64,000 bases of DNA from Candidatus Kerfeldbacteria bacterium. Lineage in GTDB: Bacteria; Patescibacteriota; Patescibacteriia; SBBC01; CAIJZX01. The DNA is taken from positions 761-64,760 of the forward strand of contig CAVSWO010000001.1 in NCBI GenBank assembly GCA_963731735.1. The letters run 5' to 3'. The notes below the pieces were generated by a model, which saw only the letters and a list, made by a program, of their open reading frames with translations, searched no databases and was not told where the DNA came from. The translations under genes were made by a program, and so were the position numbers. Of this stretch, positions 13,126 through 51,214 are shown one piece after another (positions within the stretch are counted from its first letter, which is position 1; each line of letters opens with the position of its first letter).

Positions 13126-13128
13126 AGG

Positions 13129-14349: not shown

Positions 14350-14352
14350 GGA

Positions 14353-16241: not shown

Positions 16242-16622
16242 TTGATGCAAATCTTTCCGCGAGTCTTTCAGAGTGGCTTTCGGGCTGCCTGGGCAGACCG
16301 CGTTGTTCGGTGGCTCAGTATCCTGAGTGTCGCGGTGCTGGCGGCTGAGTGGGGGTTAGTGACTTGGGCGGTGCCGCGCGGCGGTCAATTTTTACCGATC
16401 CACTACACCGTCTATTTCGGCATTGATTTGACCGGCGCCTGGAATCGGCTGCTGATGATTCCGATCGCGGCAACGGCAATTTTTCTCTGGCATTTGATCG
16501 TTAGTGGCTGGCGGAATGACCAGGTTTGGCGGCGAACGTGGGTGCTGCTCGGTCTGATCCTCGTCATGTTACTGGCGCTTGGGTTAGGTGCCATTTGGTT
16601 TAATCATATTCATCACTCGTGA
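16242..16622 (+). CDS. small membrane protein (4 TM) preceding mraY
   Basis: 126 aa. The start is TTG at 16242 or ATG at 16245, with AGGTAAG 10 nt upstream. The stop overlaps the mraY GTG start. Confidence 0.5.
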   Translation: MMQIFPRVFQSGFRAAWADRVVRWLSILSVAVLAAEWGLVTWAVPRGGQFLPIHYTVYFGIDLTGAWNRLLMIPIAATAIFLWHLIVSGWRNDQVWRRTWVLLGLILVMLLALGLGAIWFNHIHHS

Positions 16623-17659: not shown

Positions 17660-17669
17660 CGTTTCCGCC

Positions 17670-17698
17670 TTGTTTCCAAGGTGATTTTATGGTATAAT
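17670..17698 (+). promoter_or_regulatory. promoter with an extended -10 (TTGTTT-17-TGgTATAAT) directly in front of murD
   Basis: -10 TATAAT at 17693-17698 preceded by TG. The murD ATG at 17706 coincides with the predicted TSS, so the mRNA would be leaderless. Confidence 0.45.
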
Positions 17699-17705
17699 CT
17701 GGCGG

Positions 17706-20215: not shown

Positions 20216-21273
20216 CCCATCGCATATTATTGAGTGGAGGCGGTACCGCCGGATCAGTCACCCCTTTATTGGCGGTGCATGCCTATCTGACTCAGCAAGA
20301 TCCGTCCATTGAGTGGTTATTTGTCGGAACCGACACGGGCCCCGAACGGGCATTGGCCGAAGCGGCCAATTTGCCTTTCCGCACCGTCCGGGCCGGCAAG
20401 CTGCGTCGGTATTGGTCGTGGAAAAATATTTCGGACTGGTCCAACCTCTACCAGGGTTACCGGCAGGCTCGAGAGTTGATTCGAGAATGGAAACCGACCG
20501 TGGTGGTTTCGGCCGGATCGTATGTCTCGGTGCCAATCGCCTGGGCAGCGAAACTGCATCGCATACCGGTCGTCATTCATCAGCAGGATGTTCGGCCCGG
20601 CTTAGCCAATCGACTGATGGCCCCGGCCGCCAGCCGAATCACCGTTAGCTTTGAATCATCACTCCGTCATTTTCCAAAATCAAAAAGTATCTTTACCGGA
20701 AATCCGGTCCGAAGTGAATTCTTACACGCTGACGCGGCGCGCGGACGGGAGCTCTTAGATCTGAACAGCCGTTTGCCGGTTTTGGTTGTCTTAGGCGGCA
20801 GTACCGGTTCCAGCGCGTTAAATAGTTTAGTCAGTACGATTGGGTACCGGTTGGTCCAGCATTGGCAGGTGGTTCACCTAACCGGCTCGGCTCGAGACTT
20901 TGTCGAACTGCAGGACCCGCACTATCACGTGGTGCAATTTCTGACCTGGCAATTGCCGCATCTGATGGCCGCCAGCGATTTGGTGGTCAGCCGAGCAGGT
21001 CTGGGCGTGATTACCGAACTCGGCGCCCTGCGGCGCGCCGCCATTATCCTACCCATGCCGGGAACGCATCAAGAAGACAATGCGGCCCTGATTGACCGAC
21101 GGCATGCCGGATTGGTTTTGCAGCAATCCGGGTTAACGAGTGAAGACTTGTATCAAGCGATTGAAGCGCTGCGGATTGATCCGGCGCGCCGCCAGCACTA
21201 CGCGCACAATATTCACCAACTGTACCAACCGAACGCCCTGGAACAATTAAGTCAGGTCATTCTGCATGCCTAA
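20212..21273 (+). CDS. murG: UDP-GlcNAc--undecaprenyl-PP-MurNAc-pentapeptide GlcNAc transferase
   Basis: N-terminal LSGGGTAGSVTPLLAV (the G-loop of MurG) and a GT28 C-terminal domain. Confidence 0.9.
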   Translation: MTHRILLSGGGTAGSVTPLLAVHAYLTQQDPSIEWLFVGTDTGPERALAEAANLPFRTVRAGKLRRYWSWKNISDWSNLYQGYRQARELIREWKPTVVVSAGSYVSVPIAWAAKLHRIPVVIHQQDVRPGLANRLMAPAASRITVSFESSLRHFPKSKSIFTGNPVRSEFLHADAARGRELLDLNSRLPVLVVLGGSTGSSALNSLVSTIGYRLVQHWQVVHLTGSARDFVELQDPHYHVVQFLTWQLPHLMAASDLVVSRAGLGVITELGALRRAAIILPMPGTHQEDNAALIDRRHAGLVLQQSGLTSEDLYQAIEALRIDPARRQHYAHNIHQLYQPNALEQLSQVILHA

Positions 21274-22651
21274 CACCACCTTGCTCCAATCGTGCAACCG
21301 AATGTACTGTTTTGGCATCGGCGGAGTGGGCGTGTCCGGAGTCGCCCGAATCTTATTAGCCCGCGGGATCGAGGTCGTTGGGTTTGAACCAAATCCTTCG
21401 CCGCTGACTGCAGACGTGGAACGGGACGGAGGAAAAATTTTCCAAACCTTTGACCCCGCGCAACTGGATGGTATCGAGGGGGTCGTGTATTCCGACGCCT
21501 GGCATGATCACCCGGGCTTAGCCACTGCCCGGAAACAAGGAATCCCGTGCTGGTCATTTGCCGAAGGGCTGGGGCAATTGATGAGTCGGGCGGCCGCTCG
21601 AATCGCGATTAGCGGCACCAATGGTAAAAGCACCACCACCGCCTTGACCGGGCTGTTACTGGCGAATGCCAAAAAAAATCCAACCGTTTTTGTTGGTAGT
21701 CGGGTGGCCCAATTTGCCGGTAACGTCCGCATCGGCTCGCCGCGCTTATTCGTGGCCGAAGCGGATGAATATCGCGATCATTACCATCAGCTTCAACCGA
21801 CTATTCTGACCATCACCAATATCGAGGCCGATCATTTGGATTATTTTAAAACGGCGCAGGCAGTCAATCAAAGTTTTCAAACCATGATCAGCAAATTGGG
21901 ATCGGATGGGCAAGTGGTGGCTAATCTTGATGATCCAACTACCCGGCAGGTCCTACAAGGTTTTCCGCGATTGACCACCTTCGGAACCAGTCCGGGTGTC
22001 GATCTGCAACTGACGGATCAGCAGACAGAATCCGGCCGGCAACATTTCTCACTGATTTGGCAAGGCCGGGAACTGGGAAAATTTACCGTCGAAATTCCCG
22101 GCGACTATAATCTCTCCAATATCGCCGCCGCGGTCGCAACCGCCCTGCGGGCCGGAGCCAAGCCGGATAGCTTTTCCAAAACACTGGCTGACTTTCACGG
22201 GGTCTGGCGCCGATTTGAAATTTTGAACGCCGGCGCGGCGGTCACGATCGTCAATGATTACGCCCACCATCCAACCGCCGTCCGGGGCGTCCTGGAAGGG
22301 GGGCGGGCGTTTTATCCGGGTCGAAGAATTTTAGCCGTATTTCAACCGCATCACCACCACCGTTTAGCCAGTCTGTTTCCGGGTTTTGTCAACGCCTTTC
22401 AAGCGGCGGATTACGTTTTGCTGACCGACGTGTTTGCGGTCCCGGGACGCGATCAAACACCGGTGAAAACCAGTCAGGATTTAGCGGCCGCCTTGCAAGC
22501 TCAAGGCCGGGCGGTATCCTACGCGGCCACCCTTGAAGACACCAAGAATCGTTTACGCCAACTCATTCAACCGGGTGATGTGGTGATCGTGATGGGGGCC
22601 GGCGATATTTGGAAAGTCGGCGTGGAATTAGCCAAAGACTATGCCAAATAA
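21266..22651 (+). CDS. murC: UDP-N-acetylmuramate--L-alanine ligase
   Basis: FGIGGVGVSGVARIL and IAISGTNGKSTTTAL. Confidence 0.92.
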   Translation: MPNTTLLQSCNRMYCFGIGGVGVSGVARILLARGIEVVGFEPNPSPLTADVERDGGKIFQTFDPAQLDGIEGVVYSDAWHDHPGLATARKQGIPCWSFAEGLGQLMSRAAARIAISGTNGKSTTTALTGLLLANAKKNPTVFVGSRVAQFAGNVRIGSPRLFVAEADEYRDHYHQLQPTILTITNIEADHLDYFKTAQAVNQSFQTMISKLGSDGQVVANLDDPTTRQVLQGFPRLTTFGTSPGVDLQLTDQQTESGRQHFSLIWQGRELGKFTVEIPGDYNLSNIAAAVATALRAGAKPDSFSKTLADFHGVWRRFEILNAGAAVTIVNDYAHHPTAVRGVLEGGRAFYPGRRILAVFQPHHHHRLASLFPGFVNAFQAADYVLLTDVFAVPGRDQTPVKTSQDLAAALQAQGRAVSYAATLEDTKNRLRQLIQPGDVVIVMGAGDIWKVGVELAKDYAK

Positions 22652-23564
22652 TTTTCAGCTGCAAGAAAACGTCCCGCTCGCACCCTTAACGACACTCAAA
22701 TTGGGGGGCAGGGCACGGTACCTGGTCGCCGCCAAATCGGTTGATGAAGCTCGCCAGGCGCTGGCCTGGGCCCAGCAACGGCAGCTTGACTGGGTGGTCT
22801 TGGGCGCCGGCAGTAATACCCTGGTGGCCGACACCGGGTACGCCGGCTTGGTGGTGGTAATGCGTAACGATCAAGCCGAATGGAAGCCGCCGCACGTCAC
22901 CGTCGGGGCCGGCATGAAACTTGGCCAACTGGTAGCCGGCGCGTTACAGCATGATCTGGGCGGTTTGTGGTGGTTGATTGGGGTACCGGGCAGTGTCGGT
23001 GGCGCGATTTACGGCAACGCCGGGAGTCGTGATCAAGCTATCGGTCAGTATGTACAGTGGGTGGAAACGTTGGAACCAACCGGTCAGTTCAAACGTTGGT
23101 CACTGGACGAATGTGAATTCAGGTATCGGCATAGTCGGTTTAAAGAGCAGCATACAATTATTATTCGGGCCGGTCTGCAGTTACCAGCCGTCGATCGATC
23201 GCAGGAACAGCAGCTACTCAAAGAAAAAGCCGCTGCCAAGCAGAAAAATCAACCGTTGACCGCCGCCTCGGCCGGATGCATGTTTAAGAATCCCAGCGTC
23301 GAAGGGGTGTCGCTTCCGGACTATTTACAAACCCAAGTCTTTCCGGACAAGACCATTTCGGCCTGGCGTTTAATTGCGGCCTTGGACCTGCCCGGATTTC
23401 AACTCGGGCAAATGCAAATTTCGACCAAGCACGCGAATTTTATGATTAACTTGGGCGGCGCCACCGCCGATCAAGTCGTCCAACTGCTGAGTTACGTCAA
23501 ACAGCAAGTGCGTGATAATTTGGGCGTGCAATTACAAGAGGAAGTTCAATATTTAGGCTTCTAA
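22641..23564 (+). CDS. murB: UDP-N-acetylenolpyruvoylglucosamine reductase
   Basis: FAD-binding N-terminus LKLGGRARYLV...VLGAGSNTLV and a MurB C-terminal domain. Confidence 0.9.
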   Translation: MPNNFQLQENVPLAPLTTLKLGGRARYLVAAKSVDEARQALAWAQQRQLDWVVLGAGSNTLVADTGYAGLVVVMRNDQAEWKPPHVTVGAGMKLGQLVAGALQHDLGGLWWLIGVPGSVGGAIYGNAGSRDQAIGQYVQWVETLEPTGQFKRWSLDECEFRYRHSRFKEQHTIIIRAGLQLPAVDRSQEQQLLKEKAAAKQKNQPLTAASAGCMFKNPSVEGVSLPDYLQTQVFPDKTISAWRLIAALDLPGFQLGQMQISTKHANFMINLGGATADQVVQLLSYVKQQVRDNLGVQLQEEVQYLGF

Positions 23565-27317: not shown

Positions 27318-28952
27318 ATGCGTCGATCACGACTCTGGCTGACATTCGGGTTGATCATCGGCCTCGCCTTGCTGGCTGGGTACATCGACTGGCCGAACGC
27401 GCCGACCACACCCTTTCCTCCCTTCAACCGGAATTTTCCGATTCGGCTTGGTTTAGATATCCAGGGCGGCAGCAGCTTGGTTTACCAGGCGGACATGTCG
27501 AAGATCCCGAGCGCTGATCGCGACTCAGCGCTGCAAGGTGTTCGTGACGTAATTGAACGTCGCGTGAATGCCTTCGGAGTTTCCGAACCAGTCGTGCAAA
27601 CTAATCACGGCGGGGGAGAGTACCGGGTGCTGGTTGAACTGGCCGGAATTAAAGATATCAACCAGGCGATTAAACAGATCGGGGAAACACCGTTACTGGA
27701 ATTTCGCATCGCCGCCGGCCTGCCAGATGCTGAAGCGAAACAGAAAGCCGAAGATTTACTCAAACAAATTCAGCAGGGCGCGGATTTTGGGGAAATCGCC
27801 AAAGCCAATTCTGATGACCCGGGATCGGCCGTCAAGGGTGGGGATTTGGGCTTTGCGGATCCAAGTTCCTATGTCACGGAGTTTGGTGATGCCTTGAAGA
27901 AACTCAAAGACGGCGAGATTACGTCGGCTCCGGTAAAGTCTCAATTCGGCTACCACATCATCAAACGAATCGCTACGAAAACAGTCGATCAGGACGGAAA
28001 ACCGGTTGAACAAATCGAGGCCGCGCACATTCTGGTGGCCACCAGTGATTCGGCCCAGCAAACGGGAAATTTTGTTCCAACCAAGCTGTCAGGCCAGCAG
28101 CTTAAACGAGCGGATGTGGTCTTCGACCCGACCGCCGGGACGCCCCAAGTCCAGCTGACCTTTAATAGTGAGGGTGCGAAATTGTTTGAACAACTGACCA
28201 CCGACCATGTCGGCGAGGTGTTGGGTATCTATTTAGACGGACAACCGATAAGTTTACCGCGCGTCAACGGTCCGATCACCGGCGGCACCGCCATCATTAC
28301 CGGTGACTTTTCCTTGCAGGAAGCCAAAGATTTGGCACGCCGGCTGAATGCCGGAGCCCTGCCGGTGCCGATTACCTTGGTCAGCCAGCAGAACATCGGT
28401 GCCAGCTTGGGTCAGGCGGCGGTGGAGCGCAGCTTTGCCGCTGGATTGATTGGCTTAGCCTTGGTGGCAGTGTTCATGATTCTGTACTACCGCCTGCCCG
28501 GCGTGGTGGCCGTGCTGGCACTCGGGGTCTACACCTTGCTGGTGCTGGCGATATTTAAAGTCTGGCCCGTAACGCTGACGCTGGCCGGGATCGCGGGATT
28601 TATCTTGTCGATCGGTATGGCGGTGGATGCCAACATTCTGGTCTTTGAACGCACCAAGGAAGAATTGCGCGCCGGCCGACCGCTGCTGTCCGCGATTGAC
28701 GAAGGCTTCCGCCGTGCCTGGCCGTCCATCCGTGATTCGAATATTTCCAGTTTAATTACCTCGGCCATTTTGATTTGGTTCGGCAGTAGTTTAATTAAAG
28801 GTTTCGCTGTGACGCTTTCGATCGGAATTTTGCTCTCTATGTTCTCGGCTTTGACGGTCACGCGGACCTTTATGTTGCTGATCGCCCGAAAAGGGATTGC
28901 CCGCCGACCATGGTTATTTGGGGTTGGAAAATCGGAGGTGACAGATGTATAA
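27318..28952 (+). CDS. secD: protein translocase subunit SecD carrying an inserted parvulin-type peptidyl-prolyl isomerase domain
   Basis: Canonical SecD TM1, P1-base (EYRVLVELAGIKDINQAIKQIGETPLLEFR; ITGGTAIITGDFSLQEAKDLARRLNAGALPVPI) and the C-terminal 5-TM bundle are present. Residues about 136-222 (FGEIAKANSDDPGSAVKGGDLGFADPSSYVTEFGDALKKLKDGEITSAPVKSQFGYHIIKRI) form a PpiC/parvulin rotamase domain where the P1 head normally sits. Confidence 0.9.
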   Translation: MRRSRLWLTFGLIIGLALLAGYIDWPNAPTTPFPPFNRNFPIRLGLDIQGGSSLVYQADMSKIPSADRDSALQGVRDVIERRVNAFGVSEPVVQTNHGGGEYRVLVELAGIKDINQAIKQIGETPLLEFRIAAGLPDAEAKQKAEDLLKQIQQGADFGEIAKANSDDPGSAVKGGDLGFADPSSYVTEFGDALKKLKDGEITSAPVKSQFGYHIIKRIATKTVDQDGKPVEQIEAAHILVATSDSAQQTGNFVPTKLSGQQLKRADVVFDPTAGTPQVQLTFNSEGAKLFEQLTTDHVGEVLGIYLDGQPISLPRVNGPITGGTAIITGDFSLQEAKDLARRLNAGALPVPITLVSQQNIGASLGQAAVERSFAAGLIGLALVAVFMILYYRLPGVVAVLALGVYTLLVLAIFKVWPVTLTLAGIAGFILSIGMAVDANILVFERTKEELRAGRPLLSAIDEGFRRAWPSIRDSNISSLITSAILIWFGSSLIKGFAVTLSIGILLSMFSALTVTRTFMLLIARKGIARRPWLFGVGKSEVTDV

Positions 28953-29929: not shown

Positions 29930-29954
29930 TTAGGCGTTTTTGAATAACTATCGC

Positions 29955-31094
29955 ATGGAAGATCAACTGCAAGATACAGGTGGGTCTATTCTTGATCGGG
30001 TGTTGCATAGCCAACAAACGGTCGCTTTAGAGCACTTTGACCCGCAAGATATCGTCCAAGATGTGCTGAAGCAGGTTTCTGAAAAAGAAGCCGATGTTTT
30101 ACGTCGGCGATTTGGCTTGGGGCAAATGGATCAAGAAACGTTGGAAAAAATCGGCAATCATTATCATGTGACGCGTGAACGGGTCCGCCAAATCGAGCGT
30201 TGGGCGATCAAGCACCTCCAGAAGTCATCGACGGTTAAAGCTCGTCTGCACCAGCTGGAAACGTTATTGCAGCAACTGATGGAAGAGCACGGTGGGTTGA
30301 TGCTTGAAGATGAACTCTTTGCCGCCCTTCATATGCACACGTCGCCGACTGACCGTTCACGCGCCGCGATTACGTTTTTGCTCGAAGAGCTGCTGGCGGA
30401 AAAAGTCGAACGGATTGACCAAGCACCCTATAAGCCCTATTGGAAGCTTCGGTTTGAAACGCCGAGTCATTTGCCAATTGTCTTGGCCGAAGCCGAAGCG
30501 GTGATCAGCCAAGAAGGACGGCCGATTCCGCATCAGCGTTTAATTGAAAAACTCTTGGCTCGTCCGGCCATTCAATCTTTGCAACCGGCCATGAATGACG
30601 TCATGATTGATACGGCGCTAAGCGTGGCCACCAGTATCGAACGCAACCCATTTGGCGAGTACGGTTTACGAAATTGGGGGAGTATCGTCCCGAAGCGAAT
30701 GCATGATAAAATATTGTTGGTCATGCGCAAGCACGGCAAACCGATGCACTTTCAAGACATTGCCAAAAAAATCAATGAACTTGGCTTTGACCAGCGCCAG
30801 GCCTACCCGCCGACCGTGCATAATGAACTGATACTGAATGATGAATACGTCTTGATTGGTCGCGGTATCTACGCCTTACGCGAATGGGGATACAAACCGG
30901 GCGTGGTGGCGGATGTCCTCGAAGCAATTTTACGCGAGGCCGGCGAACCAATGGCCCGCGAAGATCTGGTGGCCAAAGTCTTAGAGCAACGGGTGGTCAA
31001 GCGGAACACCATTCATTTAGCGCTGACAAATAAACGGCGCTTTGCGCGGACGTCCGACGGCCGCTACACGTTGGCGACGGCCCCGACCGTTTAA
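29955..31094 (+). CDS. sigma-70 region-4 HTH / HARE-HTH domain protein, putative transcription-associated factor
   Basis: The N-terminus EKEADVLRRRFGLGQMDQETLEKIGNHYHVTRERVRQIERWAIKHL is a textbook sigma70 region 4. The C-terminus GKPMHFQDIAKKINELG...YVLIGRGIYALREWG resembles a HARE-HTH winged helix. The ORF could also start at TTG 29940. Confidence 0.6.
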   Translation: MEDQLQDTGGSILDRVLHSQQTVALEHFDPQDIVQDVLKQVSEKEADVLRRRFGLGQMDQETLEKIGNHYHVTRERVRQIERWAIKHLQKSSTVKARLHQLETLLQQLMEEHGGLMLEDELFAALHMHTSPTDRSRAAITFLLEELLAEKVERIDQAPYKPYWKLRFETPSHLPIVLAEAEAVISQEGRPIPHQRLIEKLLARPAIQSLQPAMNDVMIDTALSVATSIERNPFGEYGLRNWGSIVPKRMHDKILLVMRKHGKPMHFQDIAKKINELGFDQRQAYPPTVHNELILNDEYVLIGRGIYALREWGYKPGVVADVLEAILREAGEPMAREDLVAKVLEQRVVKRNTIHLALTNKRRFARTSDGRYTLATAPTV

Positions 31095-31116: not shown

Positions 31117-32508
31117 ATGCCGGGAGGCTTTCAACTTACCATTTCAATTCCTGAATTTTCCAGTCCGCTGGCGGCGCTGTGGTGGCTTTTTACGCATGGC
31201 GGTTTTGTGGCGGTGGTGATCGCGATTGGCTATGGAATTTGGTGGTTGTATTTAGACTATATTCAAAGCCGCTACCTGGCTCGACAACAGTACGTCATGT
31301 TGGCGGTCGATGTGCCAAAGTTGAATGAGCAGACCCCGAAAGCGGTCGAGCATATTTTTAGTCATTTTCACGGCATCCACAAACAACCGAATAAACGCGA
31401 GTTGTATGTTGAGGGTTTTGTCCAGCCAACTATTACCGTCGAACTGGTTTCGATCGGCGGCTATATTCAGTTTGTGATTCGAACGCCGATTGAACAGCGA
31501 GATCTGGTTGAATCGGCCATTTACGCGCAATACCCGGATGCCGAAATTTCGGAAGTCGAGGACTATGCCTATCGCTACGATCCAAAGTTTCCGAATGACG
31601 AATTCGATTTGTGGGCGTCCGAATTGCAGATGACCAATAAAGATCCGTACCCGATCAAGACCTATCCGCTCTGGGAACACAGTCTGACCCAAACTTTTCT
31701 CGATCCGATGGCCTCGATGTTAGAAATGATGGGCCGGCTGCAGGATGGTGAAGAAATTTGGTTTCAGTGGATTCTCAAGCCAACCCTCGACAGTCGCTGG
31801 CGTGATAAGGGGATGGACATCATCAATAAATTGATTGGTGCAAAAGTCAAAATCAAAAAAGGCGCACTCGACTCGCTGGTTGAAGCGCCGGGGAATGTTT
31901 TGTTAGGCACTTATAATACGTTGACCCGTACCTTGTTTGAACCGGTCGAAGGCAATGCGCGCAAGGATGACAATGGACTGCCGAGTTTGATGCAGCATCT
32001 TCCTCCGCATGTCAAAAATCAAGTCGAGGCAATCGGTATCAAAATCAGTAAATTAGCCTTTGAAACCAAGGCGCGCGTCGTGTACGTTGGGCGCCAGGAT
32101 GTATTTAATAAATCCCGGGTCAGTTCGATTTTCGGTTCCCTCAAACAGTTTGCAACGCTGGATATGAACGGGTTTAAGCCGGATAAGGTCATGAAAACGC
32201 AACGCTCGTACTTTCGCGTTCCGCAGCGGGTAGCGGCCCTGAAGCGCAAACTGCTGCTGGGCTATCGGACCCGCAGCAACTGGACCGGTCGTACCACCTT
32301 TATGCTGAATACCGAGGAATTGGCCTCGCTCTGGCATTTCCCGGTCGTAACGGTCAAAGCGCCACAAGTCAAAAAGACTGACGCCAAGCGCGGCGAACCG
32401 CCGGTCACACTGCCGACGGGTGAAGTAGCGGAGCGGGTCGAAAGACCGGTGGCGGCTCCGGCTGGACCACGCGGTGGCGCTCCCACCAATTTACCGACGC
32501 GTCCATGA
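31117..32508 (+). CDS. membrane-anchored hypothetical protein (2 N-terminal TM), translationally coupled partner of the downstream ATPase
   Basis: Start chosen at the ATG at 31117 (MPGGFQL...). TM helices LAALWWLFTHGGFVAVVIAIGYGIWWLYL, then a roughly 400-aa soluble domain with no known motif. ATGA overlap with the next gene. Confidence 0.55.
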   Translation: MPGGFQLTISIPEFSSPLAALWWLFTHGGFVAVVIAIGYGIWWLYLDYIQSRYLARQQYVMLAVDVPKLNEQTPKAVEHIFSHFHGIHKQPNKRELYVEGFVQPTITVELVSIGGYIQFVIRTPIEQRDLVESAIYAQYPDAEISEVEDYAYRYDPKFPNDEFDLWASELQMTNKDPYPIKTYPLWEHSLTQTFLDPMASMLEMMGRLQDGEEIWFQWILKPTLDSRWRDKGMDIINKLIGAKVKIKKGALDSLVEAPGNVLLGTYNTLTRTLFEPVEGNARKDDNGLPSLMQHLPPHVKNQVEAIGIKISKLAFETKARVVYVGRQDVFNKSRVSSIFGSLKQFATLDMNGFKPDKVMKTQRSYFRVPQRVAALKRKLLLGYRTRSNWTGRTTFMLNTEELASLWHFPVVTVKAPQVKKTDAKRGEPPVTLPTGEVAERVERPVAAPAGPRGGAPTNLPTRP

Positions 32509-34187
32509 GCGAACAACCGCAAGACGGCGTGACTTTATTTGCGACCACCAATTACCGTGGTCAGCAGCAACCGTTCGGGATCAAGACCGATGACCGACGT
32601 CGGCACATGTATGTGATCGGCAAGACCGGCATGGGCAAATCGACCATGCTTGAAAACATGATTATTCAGGATATCCGCGACGGTCAGGGGATTTGCGTGG
32701 TTGATCCGCACGGCGACTTAGTCGAAAAAATTGTCAACTTCATTCCCTCACATCGGGTCAATGACGTAATTTATTTTAACCCGGCTGACGCCGATTATCC
32801 GATTGCATTTAATATTTTGGAAGCCATTGATCCGCGCCAACGTCACCTGGTGGCTTCCGGGCTGATCGCGGTCTTCAAGAAACTCTGGGTTGATTCCTGG
32901 GGTCCGCGGCTCGAATATATTTTACGGAATACGATTTTGGCGTTGATTGAATACCCGGGTTCAACACTGTTGGGGATCAATCGGATGTTTGTCGACAAAG
33001 ACTACCGGAATAAGGTGGTCAACCATATTTCCGATCCGATCGTCAAATCTTTTTGGCAAACGGAGTTTAACGCGTATGCGCAGCAATTTCGAACCGAAGC
33101 CGTTTCGCCAATTCAAAATAAAATCGGACAATTTTTGTCGAGTTCAATCATTCGCAATATTGTCGGTCAGCCAAAATCAACGATTGACATGCGAGATATT
33201 ATGGACAGCGGAAAAATCCTGCTCCTGAATTTGGCCAAAGGCCGGATCGGTGAAGACAACGCCGCCCTGCTCGGTGCGATGATGATAACCAAGTTGCAGG
33301 TGGCGGCTATGAGTCGGATTGATATTCCTGAGCCGGAACGCCGAGATTTTATACTCTACGTTGACGAGTTTCAAAATTTTGCAACTGAATCATTTGCCAA
33401 TATTTTATCCGAAGCCAGAAAATACCGGCTGGACTTAGTGATCGCGCATCAATACATTGAGCAATTGGACGAGGCAGTGCGAGCGGCCGTGTTTGGCAAC
33501 GTCGGAACCATGATTTGTTTTCGTGTCGGGGCCGCTGATGCGGAATTTCTGGCCAAAGAATTTTTTCCGGTTTTTACCGAAACCGATCTCGTTAACCTAA
33601 CCAAGTTTGATATTTACTTAAAGTTAATGATCGACGGGGTGGCTTCGGAACCATTTTCGGCTACCGGTTTACCGCCAGTGCAAAATCCGGACAACCTTGA
33701 GGAAACGATTATTCGTGTTTCCCGTGAACGTTATGCCAAACAGCGCGATGTGGTCGAAGAAAAAATTTCACGCTGGTCCGGCGCGATGTTGGAAGCCATG
33801 GCGTCAGACGCAAAGTCGAGCGGCGACCGCCGCAATCGGGGACCCGCGCGATCGGATGGCCCGGCTCGATCAGAATCTCGCGCCCCGACTCGAAATCCCG
33901 ACAATCCGCCTGAAGCCAAGCCGAAAATCGATGTCCAAAGCCGGCAACCGGTGCCGACGGAAGGAATTCCGGCTGAAATATCTTTAGCGGACGCCTTCAA
34001 GTCACAACCGAACGACACACGATCTCCGGCCGAGCAGTCGCATCGAAATCGCCGACCAGAGCGACCGCGGCGGCGCCATGATCAACCGGCCCGACCGTCA
34101 AAAGCTGCCCCATCGGCGTCGACCGGACCGGCCGAAAATCCGGCGCCGCAGTCGATTCAGCCAGGCCAGGTCGTCCAAATCAAGTAA
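32505..34187 (+). CDS. TraG/TraD/VirD4-family (type IV coupling protein-like) P-loop ATPase with no N-terminal membrane anchor and a disordered basic C-terminal tail
   Basis: Walker A VIGKTGMGKST, Walker B ILYVDEFQNF, then ARKYRLDLVIAHQYIEQL...VFGNVGTMICFRVGAADAEF, which matches the conserved C-terminal block of TrwB/VirD4 coupling proteins. The last ~130 aa are low-complexity with GPARSDGPARSESRAP repeats. Confidence 0.75.
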   Translation: MSEQPQDGVTLFATTNYRGQQQPFGIKTDDRRRHMYVIGKTGMGKSTMLENMIIQDIRDGQGICVVDPHGDLVEKIVNFIPSHRVNDVIYFNPADADYPIAFNILEAIDPRQRHLVASGLIAVFKKLWVDSWGPRLEYILRNTILALIEYPGSTLLGINRMFVDKDYRNKVVNHISDPIVKSFWQTEFNAYAQQFRTEAVSPIQNKIGQFLSSSIIRNIVGQPKSTIDMRDIMDSGKILLLNLAKGRIGEDNAALLGAMMITKLQVAAMSRIDIPEPERRDFILYVDEFQNFATESFANILSEARKYRLDLVIAHQYIEQLDEAVRAAVFGNVGTMICFRVGAADAEFLAKEFFPVFTETDLVNLTKFDIYLKLMIDGVASEPFSATGLPPVQNPDNLEETIIRVSRERYAKQRDVVEEKISRWSGAMLEAMASDAKSSGDRRNRGPARSDGPARSESRAPTRNPDNPPEAKPKIDVQSRQPVPTEGIPAEISLADAFKSQPNDTRSPAEQSHRNRRPERPRRRHDQPARPSKAAPSASTGPAENPAPQSIQPGQVVQIK

Positions 34188-39461: not shown

Positions 39462-41279
39462 TTGATGCACGCCCACGATTTGCGCCGGAAGTTTCTCGAG
39501 TATTTCGCGAAGCACGGACATACCCAGCTCCCATCCTCGTCTTTACTGCCGGACAATGATCCGTCGGTTCTGCTGACCACGGCCGGTATGCAGCAATTTA
39601 AACCGTATTTTCTGGGCGAAAAGGATCCGGTCAAAGACTTCAAATCAAAACGGGTGACGACCGTCCAAAAATCATTTCGAACCTCGGATATTACCGAGGT
39701 CGGGGATGAATCACACCTGACCTTTTTTGAAATGCTCGGGAATTTCAGCTTCGGAGACTACGGCAAAAAGGAGGCGATTGCTTGGGCCTGGGAGTTTCTA
39801 ACCAAAACACTCCACCTGCCAAAAGACCGATTATGGGCAACGGTTTTTGCCGGTGATGACGATGTACCAGGCGATACCGAGGCGACGCGTGAATGGGAAA
39901 AATATTTACCCAAAGAAAAAATTTTTCCGCTCGGACGAAGCGATAATTTTTGGGGACCGGCCGGGGAGACTGGTCCCTGCGGCCCCAGCAGCGAGATTCA
40001 TTACCAACTTGACCCGAAGCGGGGCGGGCAGCCGGGTGATGATTCCGATAATTTTATTGAGATCTGGAATCTGGTCTTTACCGAGTATGCGCAATCCAAG
40101 GACCGCCGGTTAAAAAAACTGCCGACCTTGAACATTGATACCGGGATGGGTCTGGAACGCTTGGCGATGGTGCTACAAAAGAAAGATTCGGTTTTTGCCA
40201 CCGATGCGTTTACTTCTTTGCTACGAGTGACTGAAAAACTGCCAGCCTTTGGGCAATCGGGCGACCAAGTAGCTGATCAGCGCCGGAGCAGGATCGTCGC
40301 CGACCACATCAAAGGCGCCTGTTTCCTGTTGGCCGATGGCGTCGGGTTTTCAAATAAAGATCAGGGGTATATTTTGCGCCGGATCGTCCGACGAGCGGCC
40401 GATCAATTCTTGCTGGCCGAAATAGATTTTCAACCGTTGGTGGATGAAGTCTTTGGACTTTACGGCTCGGCCTACCCTGAATTATTGAAAAATGAACACC
40501 TGGTCCGGGGCGCATTGACCCATGAATTGGAACAGTATCAAAAAATCTTACAAATCGACGTGCATGCACTGGTCGATAAAATCCGGAAGCTCAAGCCGGC
40601 CGAAACAGACAAGCCGCAGCCTTCAACGACGGATTTAACGCCGGATGAAGCGTTTACTTTGTACGCTACCCACGGCATCTCACTCGATCGTTTAGTGCGA
40701 CTCGGTTTTACCTTCAATCAGGCATCAGTCGAAAAGAAAGTTGCCAAACACCAAGCGCTGTCACGGGCCGGGGCCGAGAAGAAATTTGGCGGCCACGGGC
40801 TGAATGACCCAGATTTGGAAAACAAATTTACCAAAGATCAGATTTGGATTATGACCCGCTTACATACGGCTACCCACCTGCTGCATGCGGCCCTGCGTAC
40901 GATACTCGGACCGGGCGTGAAACAAAGCGGTTCGGATATTACTCCCGATCGGTTGCGATTTGATTTTACCTTTGAACGTAAACTGACCGATCAAGAAAAA
41001 CAGGATATTGAAAACCTCGTCAACGAAAAAATCAAGGCGGATTTGCCGGTTTCGCACGCCAGCCTGCCGTACCAGCAGGCGATTGATCAAGGCGCGCTGG
41101 CGTTCTTCAAAGAAAAATACGGCGAACAAGTAACCGTATATTCGATCGGAGATTTTTCGAAAGAACTGTGCGGCGGACCGCATGTCGAGCACACGAATCA
41201 AATCGGCAATTTCAAGATTACCGCAGAGCAGAGTGTTGGAGCCGGGTTACGGCGGATCAAAGCCAGTCTGGGCGCCTAA
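39462..41279 (+). CDS. alaS: alanine--tRNA ligase, short form lacking the C-Ala/DHHA1 domain
   Basis: Class II core FLEYFAKHGH...FEMLGNFSFGDY. Editing-domain zinc motif (TATHLLHAAL; CGGPHV). Only 605 aa. Probable ATG at 39465. Confidence 0.9.
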   Translation: MMHAHDLRRKFLEYFAKHGHTQLPSSSLLPDNDPSVLLTTAGMQQFKPYFLGEKDPVKDFKSKRVTTVQKSFRTSDITEVGDESHLTFFEMLGNFSFGDYGKKEAIAWAWEFLTKTLHLPKDRLWATVFAGDDDVPGDTEATREWEKYLPKEKIFPLGRSDNFWGPAGETGPCGPSSEIHYQLDPKRGGQPGDDSDNFIEIWNLVFTEYAQSKDRRLKKLPTLNIDTGMGLERLAMVLQKKDSVFATDAFTSLLRVTEKLPAFGQSGDQVADQRRSRIVADHIKGACFLLADGVGFSNKDQGYILRRIVRRAADQFLLAEIDFQPLVDEVFGLYGSAYPELLKNEHLVRGALTHELEQYQKILQIDVHALVDKIRKLKPAETDKPQPSTTDLTPDEAFTLYATHGISLDRLVRLGFTFNQASVEKKVAKHQALSRAGAEKKFGGHGLNDPDLENKFTKDQIWIMTRLHTATHLLHAALRTILGPGVKQSGSDITPDRLRFDFTFERKLTDQEKQDIENLVNEKIKADLPVSHASLPYQQAIDQGALAFFKEKYGEQVTVYSIGDFSKELCGGPHVEHTNQIGNFKITAEQSVGAGLRRIKASLGA

Positions 41280-46174: not shown

Positions 46175-47023
46175 ATGTATATGGCAACCGCTAAAAAGAA
46201 AACTCGAACAGCAAAAATTACCAATTCGTCGTCCAAGCCGGCAGAAAAAGCTCTACCCGCCTTGGAGCCAAAATTACAGAATCTTCGGGTCTGGAATTGG
46301 TCGATGGCCTTTTTGCATGCCATTTCTGGCAGTCTAATGCTTTGGCTTAGCACGGACTTTCGACTGCCGATCACCACCGCTTTCGTGCAATATAGTCCGA
46401 GCAGTCGAATGCTTGAACCGAATTTGCAAAACTTTGCGGAAGCCCGAATCGGTCCGTTGGTGGCCGGTTTTCTGTTCTTATCAGCGCTGGCGCATTTCCT
46501 GGTGGCCGGACCGTTTTATAAATGGTACACCGAGCATATCGTCAAAGGCATTAACCCGGCTCGCTGGATTGAATATACATTTTCATCATCCTTGATGATT
46601 GTCGTGATCGCCATGCTGGTTGGCGTCTATGATATCGGCACCCTGATCGCTATCTTCGGACTGAACGCGATGATGATTCTCTTCGGGTGGGTGATGGAGC
46701 TCCATAATCAAACCACTCAACGGACTGATTGGACGAGTTTCGTGTTTGGGTCAGTGGCGGGAATAATCCCTTGGATCGTGATTGGCATCTATTTATTTGG
46801 CGCTGGAAACGGCAATGGCGAAGTCCCAACGTTCGTGTACTGGATTTACGGTTCAATATTTGTCTTCTTCAACTGCTTCGCCTTGAATATGGTGCTCCAA
46901 TACAAACGGGTCGGCCGCTGGCAGGACTATTTGTTTGGAGAGAAAACATATCTCATCTTGAGTTTGGTGGCTAAATCACTGCTGGCCTGGCAAGTTTTTG
47001 CCGGTACGCTTCGGCCGGTCTAG
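46175..47023 (+). CDS. heliorhodopsin (inverted-topology microbial rhodopsin)
   Basis: RWIEYTFSSSLMIVVIAMLVG, FGWVMELHNQ, GIIPWIVIGIYLFG and YLILSLVAKSLLAWQVFAGTLRP align closely with heliorhodopsin 48C12, including the TM7 Schiff-base lysine (K267, AAA at 46973-46975). GGAGG spacing favours the second ATG at 46181. Confidence 0.88.
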   Translation: MYMATAKKKTRTAKITNSSSKPAEKALPALEPKLQNLRVWNWSMAFLHAISGSLMLWLSTDFRLPITTAFVQYSPSSRMLEPNLQNFAEARIGPLVAGFLFLSALAHFLVAGPFYKWYTEHIVKGINPARWIEYTFSSSLMIVVIAMLVGVYDIGTLIAIFGLNAMMILFGWVMELHNQTTQRTDWTSFVFGSVAGIIPWIVIGIYLFGAGNGNGEVPTFVYWIYGSIFVFFNCFALNMVLQYKRVGRWQDYLFGEKTYLILSLVAKSLLAWQVFAGTLRPV

Positions 47024-47044: not shown

Positions 47045-47073
47045 TTGACAGCCGAAGCATCCTTGGGTATAGT
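47045..47073 (+). promoter_or_regulatory. consensus-like sigma70 promoter (TTGACA-17-TATAGT) of the infA-rpoA-rplQ operon
   Basis: TTGACA at 47045-47050 and TATAGT at 47068-47073. About 200 nt of leader follow, with hairpins gcctatcg-gcat-cgataggc (47131-47150) and cgcgga-acatcg-tccgcg. Confidence 0.55.
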
Positions 47074-47185
47074 TTTTTAGTACCTCACGACTTTGTCCCG
47101 TATTTGACGCTAAGACTAGCGAAATTTCGGGCCTATCGGCATCGATAGGCAGGGCAAGTTCGGGGTGCAGATCCTCGATTTTTCG

Positions 47186-47467
47186 ATGTATAAACGACAA
47201 CAGACCAATCGACAAAAAAACGCGGAACATCGTCCGCGGGGTCCGCGAGACCGTACCGATAAAGGGTTTTTAACCTTGACCGGGATGGTGATCGAGGCTC
47301 TGCCAGGCACTATGTTTCGGGTCGAGCTGGAAAATGGGCATACCATTTTGGCTCACCTGGCCGGAAAAATGCGAATGCATCGCATGAAAGTCCTGCCGGG
47401 CGATAAGGTGTCGGTTGAAATGACACCGTACGACCTGACCAAAGGTCGAATCGTCTACCGTCTGTGA
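47186..47467 (+). CDS. infA: translation initiation factor IF-1 (start ambiguous)
   Basis: [55 protein letters not shown] is IF-1. The conserved domain starts near nt 47260. Candidate starts are ATG 47186, TTG 47276 and ATG 47285. Confidence 0.8.
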
Positions 47468-47479: not shown

Positions 47480-47596
47480 ATGAAAGTTCGATCATCCGTC
47501 AAAGTTATGTGTAAGAAATGCCGCGTTATTCGACGTGGCAAACGGGTATTGGTTGTTTGTCCAGCCAATCCGAAACATAAGCAACGACAAGGATAA
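47480..47596 (+). CDS. rpmJ: 50S ribosomal protein L36
   Basis: [38 protein letters not shown] (38 aa, zinc ribbon). Not in the supplied ORF track. Confidence 0.9.
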
Positions 47597-47598: not shown

Positions 47599-47994
47599 AT
47601 GGCTGCGGTTCGAATTGCTGGAATTACTCTCCCGAACAACAAACGCGTGTTTGTCGCGCTGCAATATATTTACGGCGTGGGACCGCGAGTTGCGCGGGTG
47701 GTATTAAGCGAAGCGAAGATTGAGGACAACCCGAAAGTTGATTCACTGACTGAAGCGCAAGTTATTAAACTTCGTGAACTGGTAGAAAAAAATCATCGGG
47801 TTGAAGGCGATCTGAAACGAGAAATTCTTTTGAATATTAAACGGCTAAAGGAAATTGGGAGCTATCGCGGTGCGCGCCATAGCAAAAATTTACCGACCCG
47901 TGGACAACGAACCAAAACGAATTCACGGACGGTCCGTGGGAACGTCCGGCGTACCATGGGTTCTGGCCGCAAGCCGTCAGCGGAAAAGACCTAA
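47599..47994 (+). CDS. rpsM: 30S ribosomal protein S13
   Basis: MAAVRIAGITLPNNKRVFVALQYIYGVGPRVA... Confidence 0.92.
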   Translation: MAAVRIAGITLPNNKRVFVALQYIYGVGPRVARVVLSEAKIEDNPKVDSLTEAQVIKLRELVEKNHRVEGDLKREILLNIKRLKEIGSYRGARHSKNLPTRGQRTKTNSRTVRGNVRRTMGSGRKPSAEKT

Positions 47995-48003: not shown

Positions 48004-48483
48004 ATGAACGATCAAGAAGTTACCAAACCCGTCGCCAACGCAAACGAGCCGACCGCCGAAACGCCGGTTGAAGCCGGGCCGCCGGCCAAGGTTGAAGCGA
48101 CGCCGAAGACCGCCAAGAAGGGCAAGAAAAAAAAGTTTGTCCAGTCTGGTTTGGCGCATATTCAAGCCACCTACAACAATACCATCGTGACTATCTCAGA
48201 TCCGCAAGGGAATGTTTTGGCCTGGAGTTCGGCCGGCAAAGTTGGTTTCCGGGGTCCGAAAAAAAGTACACCATACGCCGCTTCGGTTATCGTCCGCGAC
48301 CTGGTTGAACGCGTCAAACCGATGGGTCTGAAACAAGTTGATGTATTCATTACGGGTGTCGGTCTCGGCCGGGAAGCCGCGGTTCGCGCCCTGGCCGCCC
48401 AAGGATTAACGATTTCTTCCATTAAGGACCAAACGCCGGCGCCCCACAATGGGCCACGCCCGCCGAAAGTCCGTCGCGTTTAA
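48004..48483 (+). CDS. rpsK: 30S ribosomal protein S11 with a ~40-aa low-complexity N-terminal extension
   Basis: Core [43 protein letters not shown]... preceded by a [18 protein letters not shown] tail. Confidence 0.9.
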
Positions 48484-48488: not shown

Positions 48489-49106
48489 ATGGCACGTCGT
48501 GTCGGCTCAAAAATAAAGCTTTCTCGCCGCTATGGTCAGGCCTTGTTTGGTACGGCCAAAGAGGCGAAAGTTATGCAACGTCGGCCATATGCGCCGGGTC
48601 AACATGGTCCAAACTCGCGCAGCCGGGTATCTGAATATGGGTTACAGCTGCGGGAAAAGCAGAAGGCCAAAATCATGTATGGTCTGCTGGAGCGTCAATT
48701 TCGAAAATATTATGAAGATGCGTTTCGAAAAACCGGCGATACGGGCGCTTTACTCTTAGAGTCCCTCGAACGACGGTTGGATAACGTCGTCTATCGTCTC
48801 GGTTTCGGCAGCACCCGGCAACAGGCGCGACAACTGGTTAGCCATGGACACATTACGGTCAACGGACGGCGAGTCGATATTCCTTCCTATCGGGTCACCG
48901 TCGGGGAGGTTGTCAAAATTCGTGACCAAAGCGCCCAAAAGAAATATTTCACCGATCAAGCCAAAACCTTAGAGAATTTTGAAGCGCCAGCCTGGCTCGA
49001 ACTCGATAAATCGGCGATGGCCGGGAAAGTGCTGAGTCTGCCGGCGGGTGATCAGTTGGAAGCCAATATCAATTCTCAGCTGATTGTTGAATTCTACTCC
49101 CGATAA
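48489..49106 (+). CDS. rpsD: 30S ribosomal protein S4
   Basis: [21 protein letters not shown]..., with an S4 domain [14 protein letters not shown]. Confidence 0.92.
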
Positions 49107-49136: not shown

Positions 49137-49982
49137 ATGAAATCTATTCCGCTCCCCAAATCTTTGTCCGAGCAAGCGGGTGATGGGAACCATCAAGCTA
49201 CTTTTATAATCGAACCGCTGTATCCAGGGTATGGCATGACGATTGGTAATACCTTGCGACGAGTTTTACTTTCGTCGCTTCCCGGCGCGGCTATCACCGC
49301 CGTCAAGGTCGAAGGTGCTGATCACGAGTTTTCCGGTCTGCCGCACGTTAAAGAAGATTTGGTAGATATTATTTTAAACTTGAAACAAGTCCGGCTGAAA
49401 CTGCATGGTAACGAGCCGGTGACCGTCCAGTTGAAAGTTTCTGGAGCCAAGACCGTTACCGCGGCTGATATCGCAAAAAATGCCGAGGTTGAAGTCGTCA
49501 GCCCCGACCAGGTGATTGCCACGCTGACGGATAAAGCCGCCAATCTCGATATGGAACTGACGGTTGCTCCGGGTCGCGGGTATATTCCGGTCGAAGCGCG
49601 CGAAAAAGAAAAATTGCCGATCGGCACGATCGCAATTGACGCGATTTATACCCCGGTAAAAAACGTAAATTTTGATACCGAACATGTGCGGGTTGAACAG
49701 ATGACCAACTTTGACAAGTTGAGCTTGCATATTACGACTGATGGATCGATTACGCCGGCCGAGGCGTTGCGCCAAGCGGCTGAAATCATGGTAGCGCATT
49801 TCCAGTTTGTGCTGGATGGCCCAACCCCAGAAGTCGAACCGATAGTGATTGATGAAGCCGCGACTGAACCAACCGAACCAGCCGAACCAGTCGAAGCCCC
49901 AGCCGATCCGGTTGCAGAAGAGAAGCCGAAGAAGAAAGCGGCTAAAAAAAAGAAAGACGAGACTGAAGGAACTGAGGACTAG
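49137..49982 (+). CDS. rpoA: DNA-directed RNA polymerase subunit alpha, N-terminal domain only (no alpha-CTD)
   Basis: The alpha-NTD is conserved (TIGNTLRRVLLSSLPGAAIT...). After ~aa 230 comes an acidic/Pro linker and a KKKAAKKKK tail, then the stop. No helix-hairpin-helix CTD, and rplQ follows 5 nt later. Confidence 0.85.
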   Translation: MKSIPLPKSLSEQAGDGNHQATFIIEPLYPGYGMTIGNTLRRVLLSSLPGAAITAVKVEGADHEFSGLPHVKEDLVDIILNLKQVRLKLHGNEPVTVQLKVSGAKTVTAADIAKNAEVEVVSPDQVIATLTDKAANLDMELTVAPGRGYIPVEAREKEKLPIGTIAIDAIYTPVKNVNFDTEHVRVEQMTNFDKLSLHITTDGSITPAEALRQAAEIMVAHFQFVLDGPTPEVEPIVIDEAATEPTEPAEPVEAPADPVAEEKPKKKAAKKKKDETEGTED

Positions 49983-49987
49983 TTTGC

Positions 49988-50341
49988 ATGCGCCATCGCA
50001 AGACAAACGCCACGCTCGATCGAAATAGCGCCCAGCGCCAACGGCTGATCCGGAACTTGGCATTGTCTTTGGTAACGCACGGCAAAATTGTTACCACCCG
50101 CGCCCGCGCCCGGGTTGTCCGGTCATATGTTGAGAAACTGATTACCACCGGCAAGCAGAAAGATCTGGCTCATCGCCGACAAATACTCCGCTACCTACCA
50201 AACGCGCGAGCGGCTGAAAAGATTCTGTCCGAGCTGAGCCCGAAATTTCTTGAACGTCGTGGTGGCTATACCCGAGTGGTCAAAATGAACCGCCGGGCCG
50301 GCGACGGAGCGGAACAAGTCGTGATTGAATTTGTAGCTTAA
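49988..50341 (+). CDS. rplQ: 50S ribosomal protein L17
   Basis: MRHRKTNATLDRNSAQRQRLIRNLALSLVTHGKIVTT... Confidence 0.92.
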   Translation: MRHRKTNATLDRNSAQRQRLIRNLALSLVTHGKIVTTRARARVVRSYVEKLITTGKQKDLAHRRQILRYLPNARAAEKILSELSPKFLERRGGYTRVVKMNRRAGDGAEQVVIEFVA

Positions 50342-50689: not shown

Positions 50690-51214
50690 ATGCCAACCAA
50701 ACCTGTCACAAAAAAAACCACCAAGCCGCGTTCAACGGTCAAACGCGCCTCGACTCGGAAAAAGGCTGCAACTCCTGCCTCAGCGCCAGCCACCCGCCCG
50801 GCCGCGCATAAACGAGCCGTCAAACGGACCTATACCTTCGCCGTCGGCCGCCGCAAGGAAGCGATTGCGCGCGTGCGTTGGCAGGCTGAAGGGAAGGGTG
50901 AAATGACCGTGAACGGACGGACACTGGCAGAATATTTTCCGGTGATTGAACAGCAACAACTGGTCCGGTCGCCGTTGACGCTGACCCAGCTGGAGCAAGC
51001 TGGCTCAATTACCGTCAAAGTCGCCGGGGGCGGCAGCCAGGGACAAGCCGAAGCGGTGCGGCTGGGGATTGCTCGCGTGCTGGTGATTCGTGATGCCGAT
51101 CTTCGTTTAGTGCTGAAACGAGCTGGATTCCTGCGACGCGACCCGCGGGTCAAGGAACGGAAGAAATACGGTCTTAAGCGCGCCCGGCGCGCGCCGCAGT
51201 GGCAGAAGCGCTAA
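50690..51214 (+). CDS. rpsI: 30S ribosomal protein S9 with a ~45-aa basic/Ala-Pro-rich N-terminal extension
   Basis: C-terminal RRDPRVKERKKYGLKRARRAPQWQKR is the S9 signature tail. Confidence 0.9.
   Translation: MPTKPVTKKTTKPRSTVKRASTRKKAATPASAPATRPAAHKRAVKRTYTFAVGRRKEAIARVRWQAEGKGEMTVNGRTLAEYFPVIEQQQLVRSPLTLTQLEQAGSITVKVAGGGSQGQAEAVRLGIARVLVIRDADLRLVLKRAGFLRRDPRVKERKKYGLKRARRAPQWQKR

Follow-up and report, generated by a model that had tools for sequence, protein, structure and literature searches.

Can bacterial RNA polymerase (RNAP) work without the C-terminal domain of its alpha subunit (alpha-CTD), the domain that underlies UP-element recognition and class I/II activation? The question is raised by the rpoA gene found in a 64,000-nucleotide stretch of the genome of a Candidatus Kerfeldbacteria bacterium (contig CAVSWO010000001.1; the whole stretch is called the window below), whose product was originally predicted to consist of an N-terminal domain (NTD) and a short tail. 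Our data indicate that loss of the alpha-CTD from this protein is genuine almost beyond doubt. As judged from homologous sequences, the absence is a lineage-wide, clade-level trait and not a peculiarity of one genome, a point that the original prediction missed. In place of the domain these proteins carry a tail in which a short basic motif is, very probably, under selection and might act as a substitute contact with DNA upstream of promoters.

The rpoA product keeps a complete NTD and ends in a disordered tail

The window gene can be taken as the canonical rpoA, genuine and single, of a Patescibacteria (Candidate Phyla Radiation, CPR) bacterium close to Candidatus Kerfeldbacteria. It lies in the canonical operon order infA-rpmJ-rpsM-rpsK-rpsD-rpoA-rplQ-rplM-rpsI, whose central part, rpsM-rpsK-rpsD-rpoA-rplQ, is common to relatives with and without the CTD. 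The open reading frame (ORF) coordinates bear out a product of 281 amino acids and an rplQ that follows 5 nt later (ATG at 49988), so there is no room for a CTD at that place. Both rpoA equivalog profiles score above their cut-offs (NF003519, 291.1 bits versus 277; TIGR02027, 270.2 bits versus 227.8), and both align across the N-terminal two thirds only, covering profile positions 13–231 of 320 and 2–210 of 298, respectively. Pfam recognizes RNA_pol_L (PF01193) at residues 26–222 (E = 8.7e–23) and, inserted in it, RNA_pol_A_bac (PF01000) at residues 56–172 (E = 1.5e–29). RNA_pol_A_CTD (PF03118) is not matched in the protein even at E ≤ 10, and the helix-hairpin-helix CTD is missing. The protein is thus an RpoA orthologue that differs from the canonical one in a single domain test.

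Compared with solved structures, residues 20–227 align with residues 23–233 of E. coli alpha, and because they cover this region the NTD is complete; native alpha chains among the matches in PDB are all 305–368 amino acids long. An AlphaFold2 model, calculated with a 45-sequence alignment as input, gives a predicted local distance difference test score (pLDDT) above 90 for residues 1–227, with the last helix at residues 207–227. Residues 230–281 are modelled as featureless coil with pLDDT of 42–63 (∼56–63 in the linker part), and the tail is predicted to be disordered and to hide no cryptic folded domain. The 53-residue tail, PTPEVEPIVIDEAATEPTEPAEPVEAPADPVAEEKPKKKAAKKKKDETEGTED, can be parsed as PTPEVEPIVIDEAATEPTEPAEPVEAPADPVAEE-KPKKKAAKKKK-DETEGTED, that is, a linker (residues 229–262) with 11 Asp/Glu and not a single Lys or Arg, then a basic motif and an acidic tip. 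The letters of the tail agree with those given in the original prediction, and the architecture was described correctly from the start: Pfam, the E. coli alignment and the model agree on a complete NTD, the translation contains the acidic Pro/Glu linker followed by a Lys-rich part, and the Pfam and equivalog searches concur on the absence of the alpha-CTD.

No hidden, frameshifted or relocated CTD is found in the sequences searched

The original prediction named two findings that could overturn it, a frameshift within rpoA and a separate CTD gene elsewhere. We built a hidden Markov model (HMM) from 27 clean CPR-type C-terminal segments and ran it on stop-to-stop segments in six frames. In the 64-kb window the best match was noise (E = 0.16, 8.5 bits), which fits the earlier remark that no helix-hairpin-helix-like sequence is seen in the other frames, and in 14 CTD-less loci of other genomes nothing better than E = 0.6 was obtained. 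All eight positive control loci were recovered at E ≤ 2e–14, including three with the CTD split off by a frameshift. It should be noted that an alternative-frame ORF overlapping the rpoA tail (49849..50028) is also basic and encodes no CTD, and that the codons of the Lys-rich motif include an A8 homopolymer (49944..49951), a potential slippage or sequencing-error site.

That homopolymer, together with the frameshift-split rpoA genes known in public assemblies, is what could be said for the idea that a normal rpoA was shortened by a frameshift that arose in sequencing or assembly, or by a stop codon in the wrong place. We give this explanation practically no credence, and it is already refuted by comparative data: no sequence remains for a CTD before rplQ, the six-frame search is negative, and the CTD-less architecture recurs, in an unchanged gene order, in more than 220 independent homologue clusters, which rules a frameshift out. 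An alpha-CTD encoded as a separate gene elsewhere (a split rpoA) is also very improbable, if less so. In its favour are that the window covers 64 kb whereas the contig runs to at least 135 kb, and that short PF03118-only proteins do occur in public data. With a profile of eight CPR CTDs we retrieved 64 such proteins. Six were inspected in their genomic context; four belong to split or truncated rpoA and two to phage or defence-island surroundings, and in no case has the CTD of a CTD-less CPR genome moved to another site. The negative searches of the window and of the 14 CTD-less loci also speak against a split gene, and the conserved tail argues for a substituted rather than relocated function.

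The inspected cases deserve a description of their own. In three of them (L085, 3204..4195; L086, 3231..4207; L087, 3296..4294) rpoA occupies its canonical site but is split by frameshifts, with adjoining ribosomal genes fragmented too, in assemblies that are apparently error-prone; a fourth (L091) is a contig-edge fragment. In protein databases, split rpoA ORFs of this kind, NTD-only and CTD-only, look like cases of domain loss or like standalone CTDs. The remaining two are genuine standalone alpha-CTD-like proteins outside rpoA. One (P0406, L088 4001..4333) is found in a phage-like locus beside SSB and Cro/CI-type repressors. The other (P0410, which with its neighbour spans L090 4001..6726) belongs to a defence-like locus with an SNF2 helicase and SMC/AAA_15 proteins, and is followed there by an 817-amino-acid protein matching alpha-CTD and sigma-70 region 4.

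CTD-less RpoA is shared by a large group of relatives

Comparison of rpoA length among relatives, proposed together with the original prediction, shows that homologues are equally short and lie in the same operon. Among the 120 best homologues of the window RpoA, 119 are 249–294 amino acids long and have no PF03118, the sole exception being P0100 (310 amino acids). The domain is also absent from all 120 best matches of a more distant CTD-less relative, P0101, and over both sets the CTD-less proteins measure 249–305 amino acids. The genomes concerned are well assembled: contigs with P0101 reach 1.18 Mb, and those with other CTD-less members measure 0.5–0.9 Mb. The closest named relatives belong to Candidatus Kerfeldbacteria (66–69% identity), placed by the NCBI taxonomy in the Parcubacteria group of the Patescibacteria group; other source names among the homologues are Buchananbacteria, Parcubacteria and 'Patescibacteria group'.

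A broader view is provided by 80 loci from GTDB species representatives, taken among the matches listed, a set outside which the closest Kerfeldbacteria genomes fall. Thirteen of these loci are CTD-less once truncation and frameshift cases are set aside, among them Veblenbacteria (L005), Kuenenbacteria (L022), Uhrbacteria (L009), Magasanikbacteria (L025) and one member of Paceibacterota (L030). The CTD is kept in the listed loci of Zambryski-, Kaiser-, Nomura-, Taylor- and Gribaldobacteria and of Minisyncoccales, and throughout the listed non-CPR phyla with three exceptions: L051 is frameshifted, L052 is interrupted by the end of its contig, and L079 is a CTD-less locus with an uncertain label of Gammaproteobacteria. 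In a neighbour-joining tree of 422 NTDs (227 NTD columns) one split unites 223 CTD-less proteins with a single CTD-bearing one (P0134), and about 20 further CTD-less, Lys-rich sequences are scattered outside it; 16 Fitch changes are counted on the tree. This tree is too weak for counting independent losses of the CTD.

The tail carries a conserved basic motif related to the AT-hook

To look at the tail we aligned the 99 nearest CTD-less homologues, which are 55–75% identical to the window RpoA. The linker, which differs in length among them, cannot be aligned; its columns are sparsely occupied, and the most frequent residue usually accounts for less than 50%. Further on, the columns of the basic motif are kept: P264 in 93 of the homologues, K265 in 97, K/R266 in 97, K/R267 in 81, K/R269 in 88 and K/R270–272 in 84–94. 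The first position past the motif, 274, is Asp or Glu in 81 of 97 relatives. The consensus of close relatives can be written as (D/E)(D/E)-K-P-K-K-K-x(0-2)-R-K-K-K-(T/S/A)-(D/E)(D/E), and the window protein has Ala where relatives usually have Arg. All eight Lys residues of its 53-residue tail fall within 11 residues, a clustering that none of 200,000 shuffles matched. Since the motif columns are conserved while the linker is unalignable, selection on the motif is the reading in which we place strong confidence.

In distant members the same C-terminal position is occupied by (E)KPKKKRGRPKK. Forty-two CTD-less sequences from several subclades contain a basic-flanked G-R-P, the defining core of the AT-hook, and intermediate forms (KPKKRGRKKK, KPKRGRKKK, KKKRGRAKK, KKKRGRGKK) link the Lys-rich and AT-hook types. 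None of 149 CTD-bearing proteins has a basic-flanked G-R-P. Seven G-R-P relatives were scanned with the 13-residue Pfam model of the AT-hook (PF02178; cut-off 17.4 bits); five score 13.6–17.1 bits and the other two 9.0 and 11.1 bits, all below the cut-off. By definition, the window motif is not an AT-hook; from its sequence it plausibly works like a degenerate, nonspecific one.

The tails of CTD-less proteins whose NTD is complete, 273 in all, were sorted by type. An AT-hook core is present in 42 and a strong basic cluster in 153, together 195 of the 273; the cluster is weak in 29 and absent from 38, and 11 proteins have a long junk tail. Tail type shows no pattern with the GC content of the locus, although the number of loci is tiny (0.36–0.55 for AT-hook tails, 0.39–0.53 for Lys-rich ones including the window, 0.43–0.59 for those with no basic motif). 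In about ten CTD-bearing CPR RpoA proteins the linker that joins the NTD to the CTD is strongly Lys-rich, as in KVKTKKSKKEKATKTKTK (the group includes P0133, P0134, P0153, P0159, P0237, P0257, L017, L019 and L023), and one of them, P0134, is the nearest to the CTD-less clade. This suggests that basic linkers may have preceded the loss of the CTD, such linkers being a possible intermediate state.

Promoters of the window

According to the original prediction, strong near-consensus core promoters are seen throughout the window. A modest enrichment is indeed found: sigma-70-type sites with at least 10 of 12 matches number 12, versus 5.7 ± 2.2 in dinucleotide shuffles, and five of the 12 are intergenic, where intergenic DNA makes up 3.7% of the window. 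The original statement holds to a modest extent only; in the 44–53 kb stretch taken by itself, promoter-like sites are not above chance. In the 30 nt that precede each of the five intergenic sites, the AT fraction is 0.30, 0.33, 0.70, 0.57 and 0.50 (mean 0.48 versus 0.47 for the window), with an obvious A-tract upstream of the site at 27019 only.

A near-consensus promoter, TTGACA-17-TATACT at 29901, lies just upstream of a gene for a 384-amino-acid protein. The protein combines an RpoD-type sigma-70 region 4 (residues 36–98, Pfam E = 4.6e–13) with a HARE-HTH domain like that of RNAP delta (residues 254–316; TIGR04567, 34 bits with a cut-off of 42), and no sigma region 2 was found in it. Its domains suggest that it could be an RNAP-associated factor relevant to CTD-less polymerases.

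Gene context

Coordinates of rpoA, of the parts of its product and of other features of the window are collected in Table 1. Two ribosomal proteins encoded near rpoA, S11 and S9, have N-terminal low-complexity extensions of ∼35–45 residues. That of S11 is rich in Glu, Pro, Thr and Ala, ends in KKGKKKK and resembles the rpoA tail in composition, and that of S9 is rich in Lys, Arg, Ala, Pro and Thr. Directly upstream of the infA-rpsM-rpoA operon lies a heliorhodopsin gene. SecD contains a PpiC/parvulin-type peptidyl-prolyl isomerase domain (residues 137–218) between the first periplasmic segment and the P1 head. Gene content is typical of CPR, with type IV pilus genes (PilM, PilC and PilB types), the cluster mraY-murD-ftsW-murG-murC-murB, a coupling ATPase similar to TrwB/VirD4 and an alanyl-tRNA synthetase that is only 605 amino acids long.

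Table 1. Location of rpoA, its parts and other features in the window
Feature	Coordinates	Strand	Basis and remarks
rpoA, RNA polymerase alpha subunit without alpha-CTD	49137..49982	+	281 amino acids, ATG start, TAG stop; NCBIfam rpoA equivalogs above cut-offs, Pfam NTD domains only
alpha-NTD, residues 1–228, complete, dimerisation and beta/beta' assembly	49137..49820	+	Pfam, AlphaFold2, E. coli alignment
Acidic Pro/Glu/Ala linker, residues 229–262	49821..49922	+	Translation; sequence and length vary across relatives
Basic motif KPKKKAAKKKK, residues 263–273, proposed tethered DNA contact	49923..49955	+	Conservation in relatives
C-terminal acidic tip DETEGTED, residues 274–281	49956..49979	+	Translation
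rplQ (L17)	49988..50341	+	ATG 5 nt past rpoA stop
infA	47165..47467	+	Upstream alpha operon; ORF
rpmJ	47480..47596	+	Upstream alpha operon; ORF and translation
rpsM	47599..47994	+	Upstream alpha operon; ORF and synteny with Pfam-annotated relatives
rpsK (S11)	48004..48483	+	Upstream alpha operon; ORF and synteny with Pfam-annotated relatives
rpsD	48489..49106	+	Upstream alpha operon; ORF and synteny with Pfam-annotated relatives
rpsI (S9)	50690..51214
TTGACA-17-TATAGT (11/12) upstream of infA, likely operon promoter	47045..47073	+	Consensus match only
Heliorhodopsin gene	46175..47023	+	PF18761, E = 3e–102
384-amino-acid protein, sigma-70 region 4 and HARE-HTH	29940..31094	+	Pfam; TIGR04567 below cut-off
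SecD	27318..28952	+
Typical CPR gene content	11025..16074	-
Typical CPR gene content	16619..23564	+
Typical CPR gene content	32505..34187	+
Typical CPR gene content	39462..41279	+

DISCUSSION

Absence of the alpha-CTD from an otherwise ordinary RpoA raises the question of a substitute. Both the alpha-CTD and AT-hooks read narrow A/T-rich minor grooves via arginine, as is known from the structures of alpha-CTD with UP elements and of HMGA proteins. The original prediction guessed that the Lys-rich tail contacts DNA, and comparative data lend support to this guess: the basic motif is the sole conserved element after the NTD, and relatives have an AT-hook at its position. We lean, by a little, towards the view that the place of the alpha-CTD was taken by a tethered DNA contact, of the basic or the AT-hook type, which acts as a substitute contact with upstream DNA. 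In this scheme the CTD, lost in the lineage, would have given way to a disordered appendage made up of an acidic Pro/Glu/Ala tether of ∼35 residues, the basic motif and the acidic tip. Each alpha of the dimer would present one basic motif ∼35 residues away from its NTD, on a tether whose length should let the motif reach the DNA that lies upstream of –35. The contact may be electrostatic, or may involve the A/T-rich minor groove in the R-G-R-P versions; in the window protein a sequence-nonspecific electrostatic contact is probably the case, because the motif has no G-R-P core. The promoter-anchoring role of the alpha-CTD would thereby be kept and the protein surface for class I activators dispensed with. 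We infer all three of DNA binding, the identity of the DNA contacted and the loss of activator-dependent regulation; that the organism does not use CTD-dependent activation, as was supposed originally, would follow logically. It was reported that the alpha-NTD alone is enough for assembly and basal transcription (PMC8321222).

A more far-reaching version, which we regard as possible though short of probable, extends the proposal to a class-level clade (Kerfeld-, Veblen-, Kuenen-, Buchanan- and Uhrbacteria with relatives). A single AT-hook on a disordered tether may have replaced the CTD there, so that the RNAP core would read the A/T-rich minor groove upstream of promoters with a convergent UP-element reader of ∼10 residues. 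The Lys-rich form of the window would then be a degenerate, sequence-independent anchor, and class I activation would be gone clade-wide.

Several observations weigh against DNA contact as the function of the tail. PF02178 has no match in the window RpoA at E ≤ 10, the G-R-P core being missing from its motif. No clear A/T enrichment is seen upstream of the –35 element at the five best intergenic promoters of the window, in a comparison that is underpowered (n = 5) and made on promoters predicted by consensus matches. The 38 tails without a basic cluster are partly artefacts and partly a coherent, purely acidic group (for example LNGTKKEVEEEKIEGEVEAPESEPVA); acidic-only or very short tails are seen in P0103, P0111, P0282, P0286, P0287, P0290, P0308, P0338, L008, L009 and L028, and that of Uhrbacteria L009 is only 9 residues long. 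It appears from such tails that the basic motif is dispensable in some lineages. Finally, extended AT-hooks are reported to be able to bind RNA instead of DNA (PMC4615771).

These points bear on two other explanations of the tail. The motif might be functional without binding promoter DNA, and serve instead as a contact with RNA (nascent transcript or rRNA) or with a ribosomal or other acidic protein, as a switch that folds back on the acidic linker, or as a docking site for a CPR-specific regulator. Conservation of the motif says nothing of its binding partner, acidic segments on both sides of a basic patch are typical of autoinhibited intrinsically disordered regions, and RNA binding by extended AT-hooks as well as the unremarkable composition upstream of the window promoters would agree with such a role. 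We nevertheless consider it unlikely, since the appendage sits at the exact site where other bacteria tether their DNA-binding alpha-CTD, 42 relatives carry a canonical DNA minor-groove motif there, and the documented RNAP-tethered AT-hooks of bacteria bind DNA. Slightly more doubtful still is pure reductive loss, with the tail as a functionless low-complexity remnant and the Lys run as a product of composition or mutational bias towards A-rich codons. CPR genomes are indeed reduced, the codons of the motif form an A-rich tract in which the A8 run lies, some relatives end in the acidic-only or 9-residue tails just mentioned, and Hodgkinia, Tremblaya and Euglena plastids lost the CTD without obvious replacement (PMC8321222). 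Yet 81–97 of the 99 nearest relatives keep the motif in position and sequence next to a freely varying linker, the motif stands between a conserved Pro and a conserved Asp/Glu, R-G-R-P is seen again and again, in 42 sequences over several subclades, and the shuffles failed to reproduce the Lys clustering.

A tethered DNA contact finds parallels among known systems. Canonical RpoA (E. coli, Thermus, Bacillus, Mycobacterium; TIGR02027) is related to the window protein by orthology, PF01193 and PF01000, operon position and equivalog scores, and also has a flexible segment after the NTD that bears a distal element. There, however, a linker of 13–20 residues leads to a folded domain of 85 residues (PF03118) with the R265-type UP-element reader and activator determinants 261, 265 and 287, none of which the window protein has; it has the disordered tail of ∼53 residues instead. 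Alpha subunits of Hodgkinia, Tremblaya and Euglena plastids also kept the NTD and lost the CTD (PMC8321222). These endosymbiont and plastid cases are described as erosion with no conserved replacement reported, and it is by this description that we set them apart. CTD-less CPR bacteria, in contrast, form a large environmental clade with contigs of ∼0.6–1.2 Mb, normal sigma-70-type promoters and a conserved basic or AT-hook motif.

In the Myxococcus protein CarD, which binds RNAP beta, four RGRP hooks come after an acidic segment (PMC4374960). The HMGA-like domain of CarD and a Lys-rich domain of the histone H1 type are described as functionally interchangeable (PMC4374960, citing Garcia-Heras 2009). 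The window RpoA likewise has a disordered appendage on an RNAP-bound module, acidic and then basic as in HMGA and CarD, and attached directly to the alpha-NTD; RpoA tails show the same spectrum from AT-hook to Lys-rich. The 3–4 R-G-R-P repeats of such proteins are not found, the window tail having one basic motif and relatives one hook each. CarD is an accessory factor with four hooks in ∼140 residues, whereas in RpoA a single motif belongs to a core subunit, and the two are not homologous. Wbl proteins of actinobacteria have a C-terminal AT-hook and bind sigma-A (PMC6954389). They resemble the RpoA tail as a short basic AT-hook-type extension brought to the holoenzyme via sigma-A region 4, from where DNA near or upstream of –35 is within its reach, but are separate, conditional iron-sulphur regulators, while RpoA is a constitutive core subunit. 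As to the HMGA AT-hook (PF02178) itself, relatives share K-K-K-R-G-R-P-K-K, basic flanks and an acidic stretch after the hook as in the HMGA C-terminus; the window RpoA has A-A in place of R-G-R-P, a single copy, no Pfam match and a bacterial context.

A basic or AT-hook tail on RpoA is nowhere described in the open-access and bioRxiv full texts that we searched, nor is alpha-CTD loss in CPR, apart from a 2021 paper (PMC8321222), where a single sentence mentions CTD loss in Parcubacteria and cites PMC4508563. The words 'polymerase', 'rpoA' and 'alpha' do not occur in the main text of the latter.

As recently as 2025 the alpha-CTD was described as 'ubiquitously present across all Bacteria' (PMC12531629). 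The present data contradict the working assumption that the domain is universal and indicate that bacterial RNAP can do without it outside extreme endosymbionts. Care is needed with protein databases, in which NTD-only and CTD-only ORFs mix real biology with frameshift artefacts, and gene context is required to separate them. As a compact module, the tail may find use in engineered polymerases. The replacement motif suggests that the indispensable function of the CTD is contact with upstream DNA, and how little protein suffices for it. Models of gene regulation in CPR bacteria are constrained as well, since these organisms could have no CTD-dependent activators.

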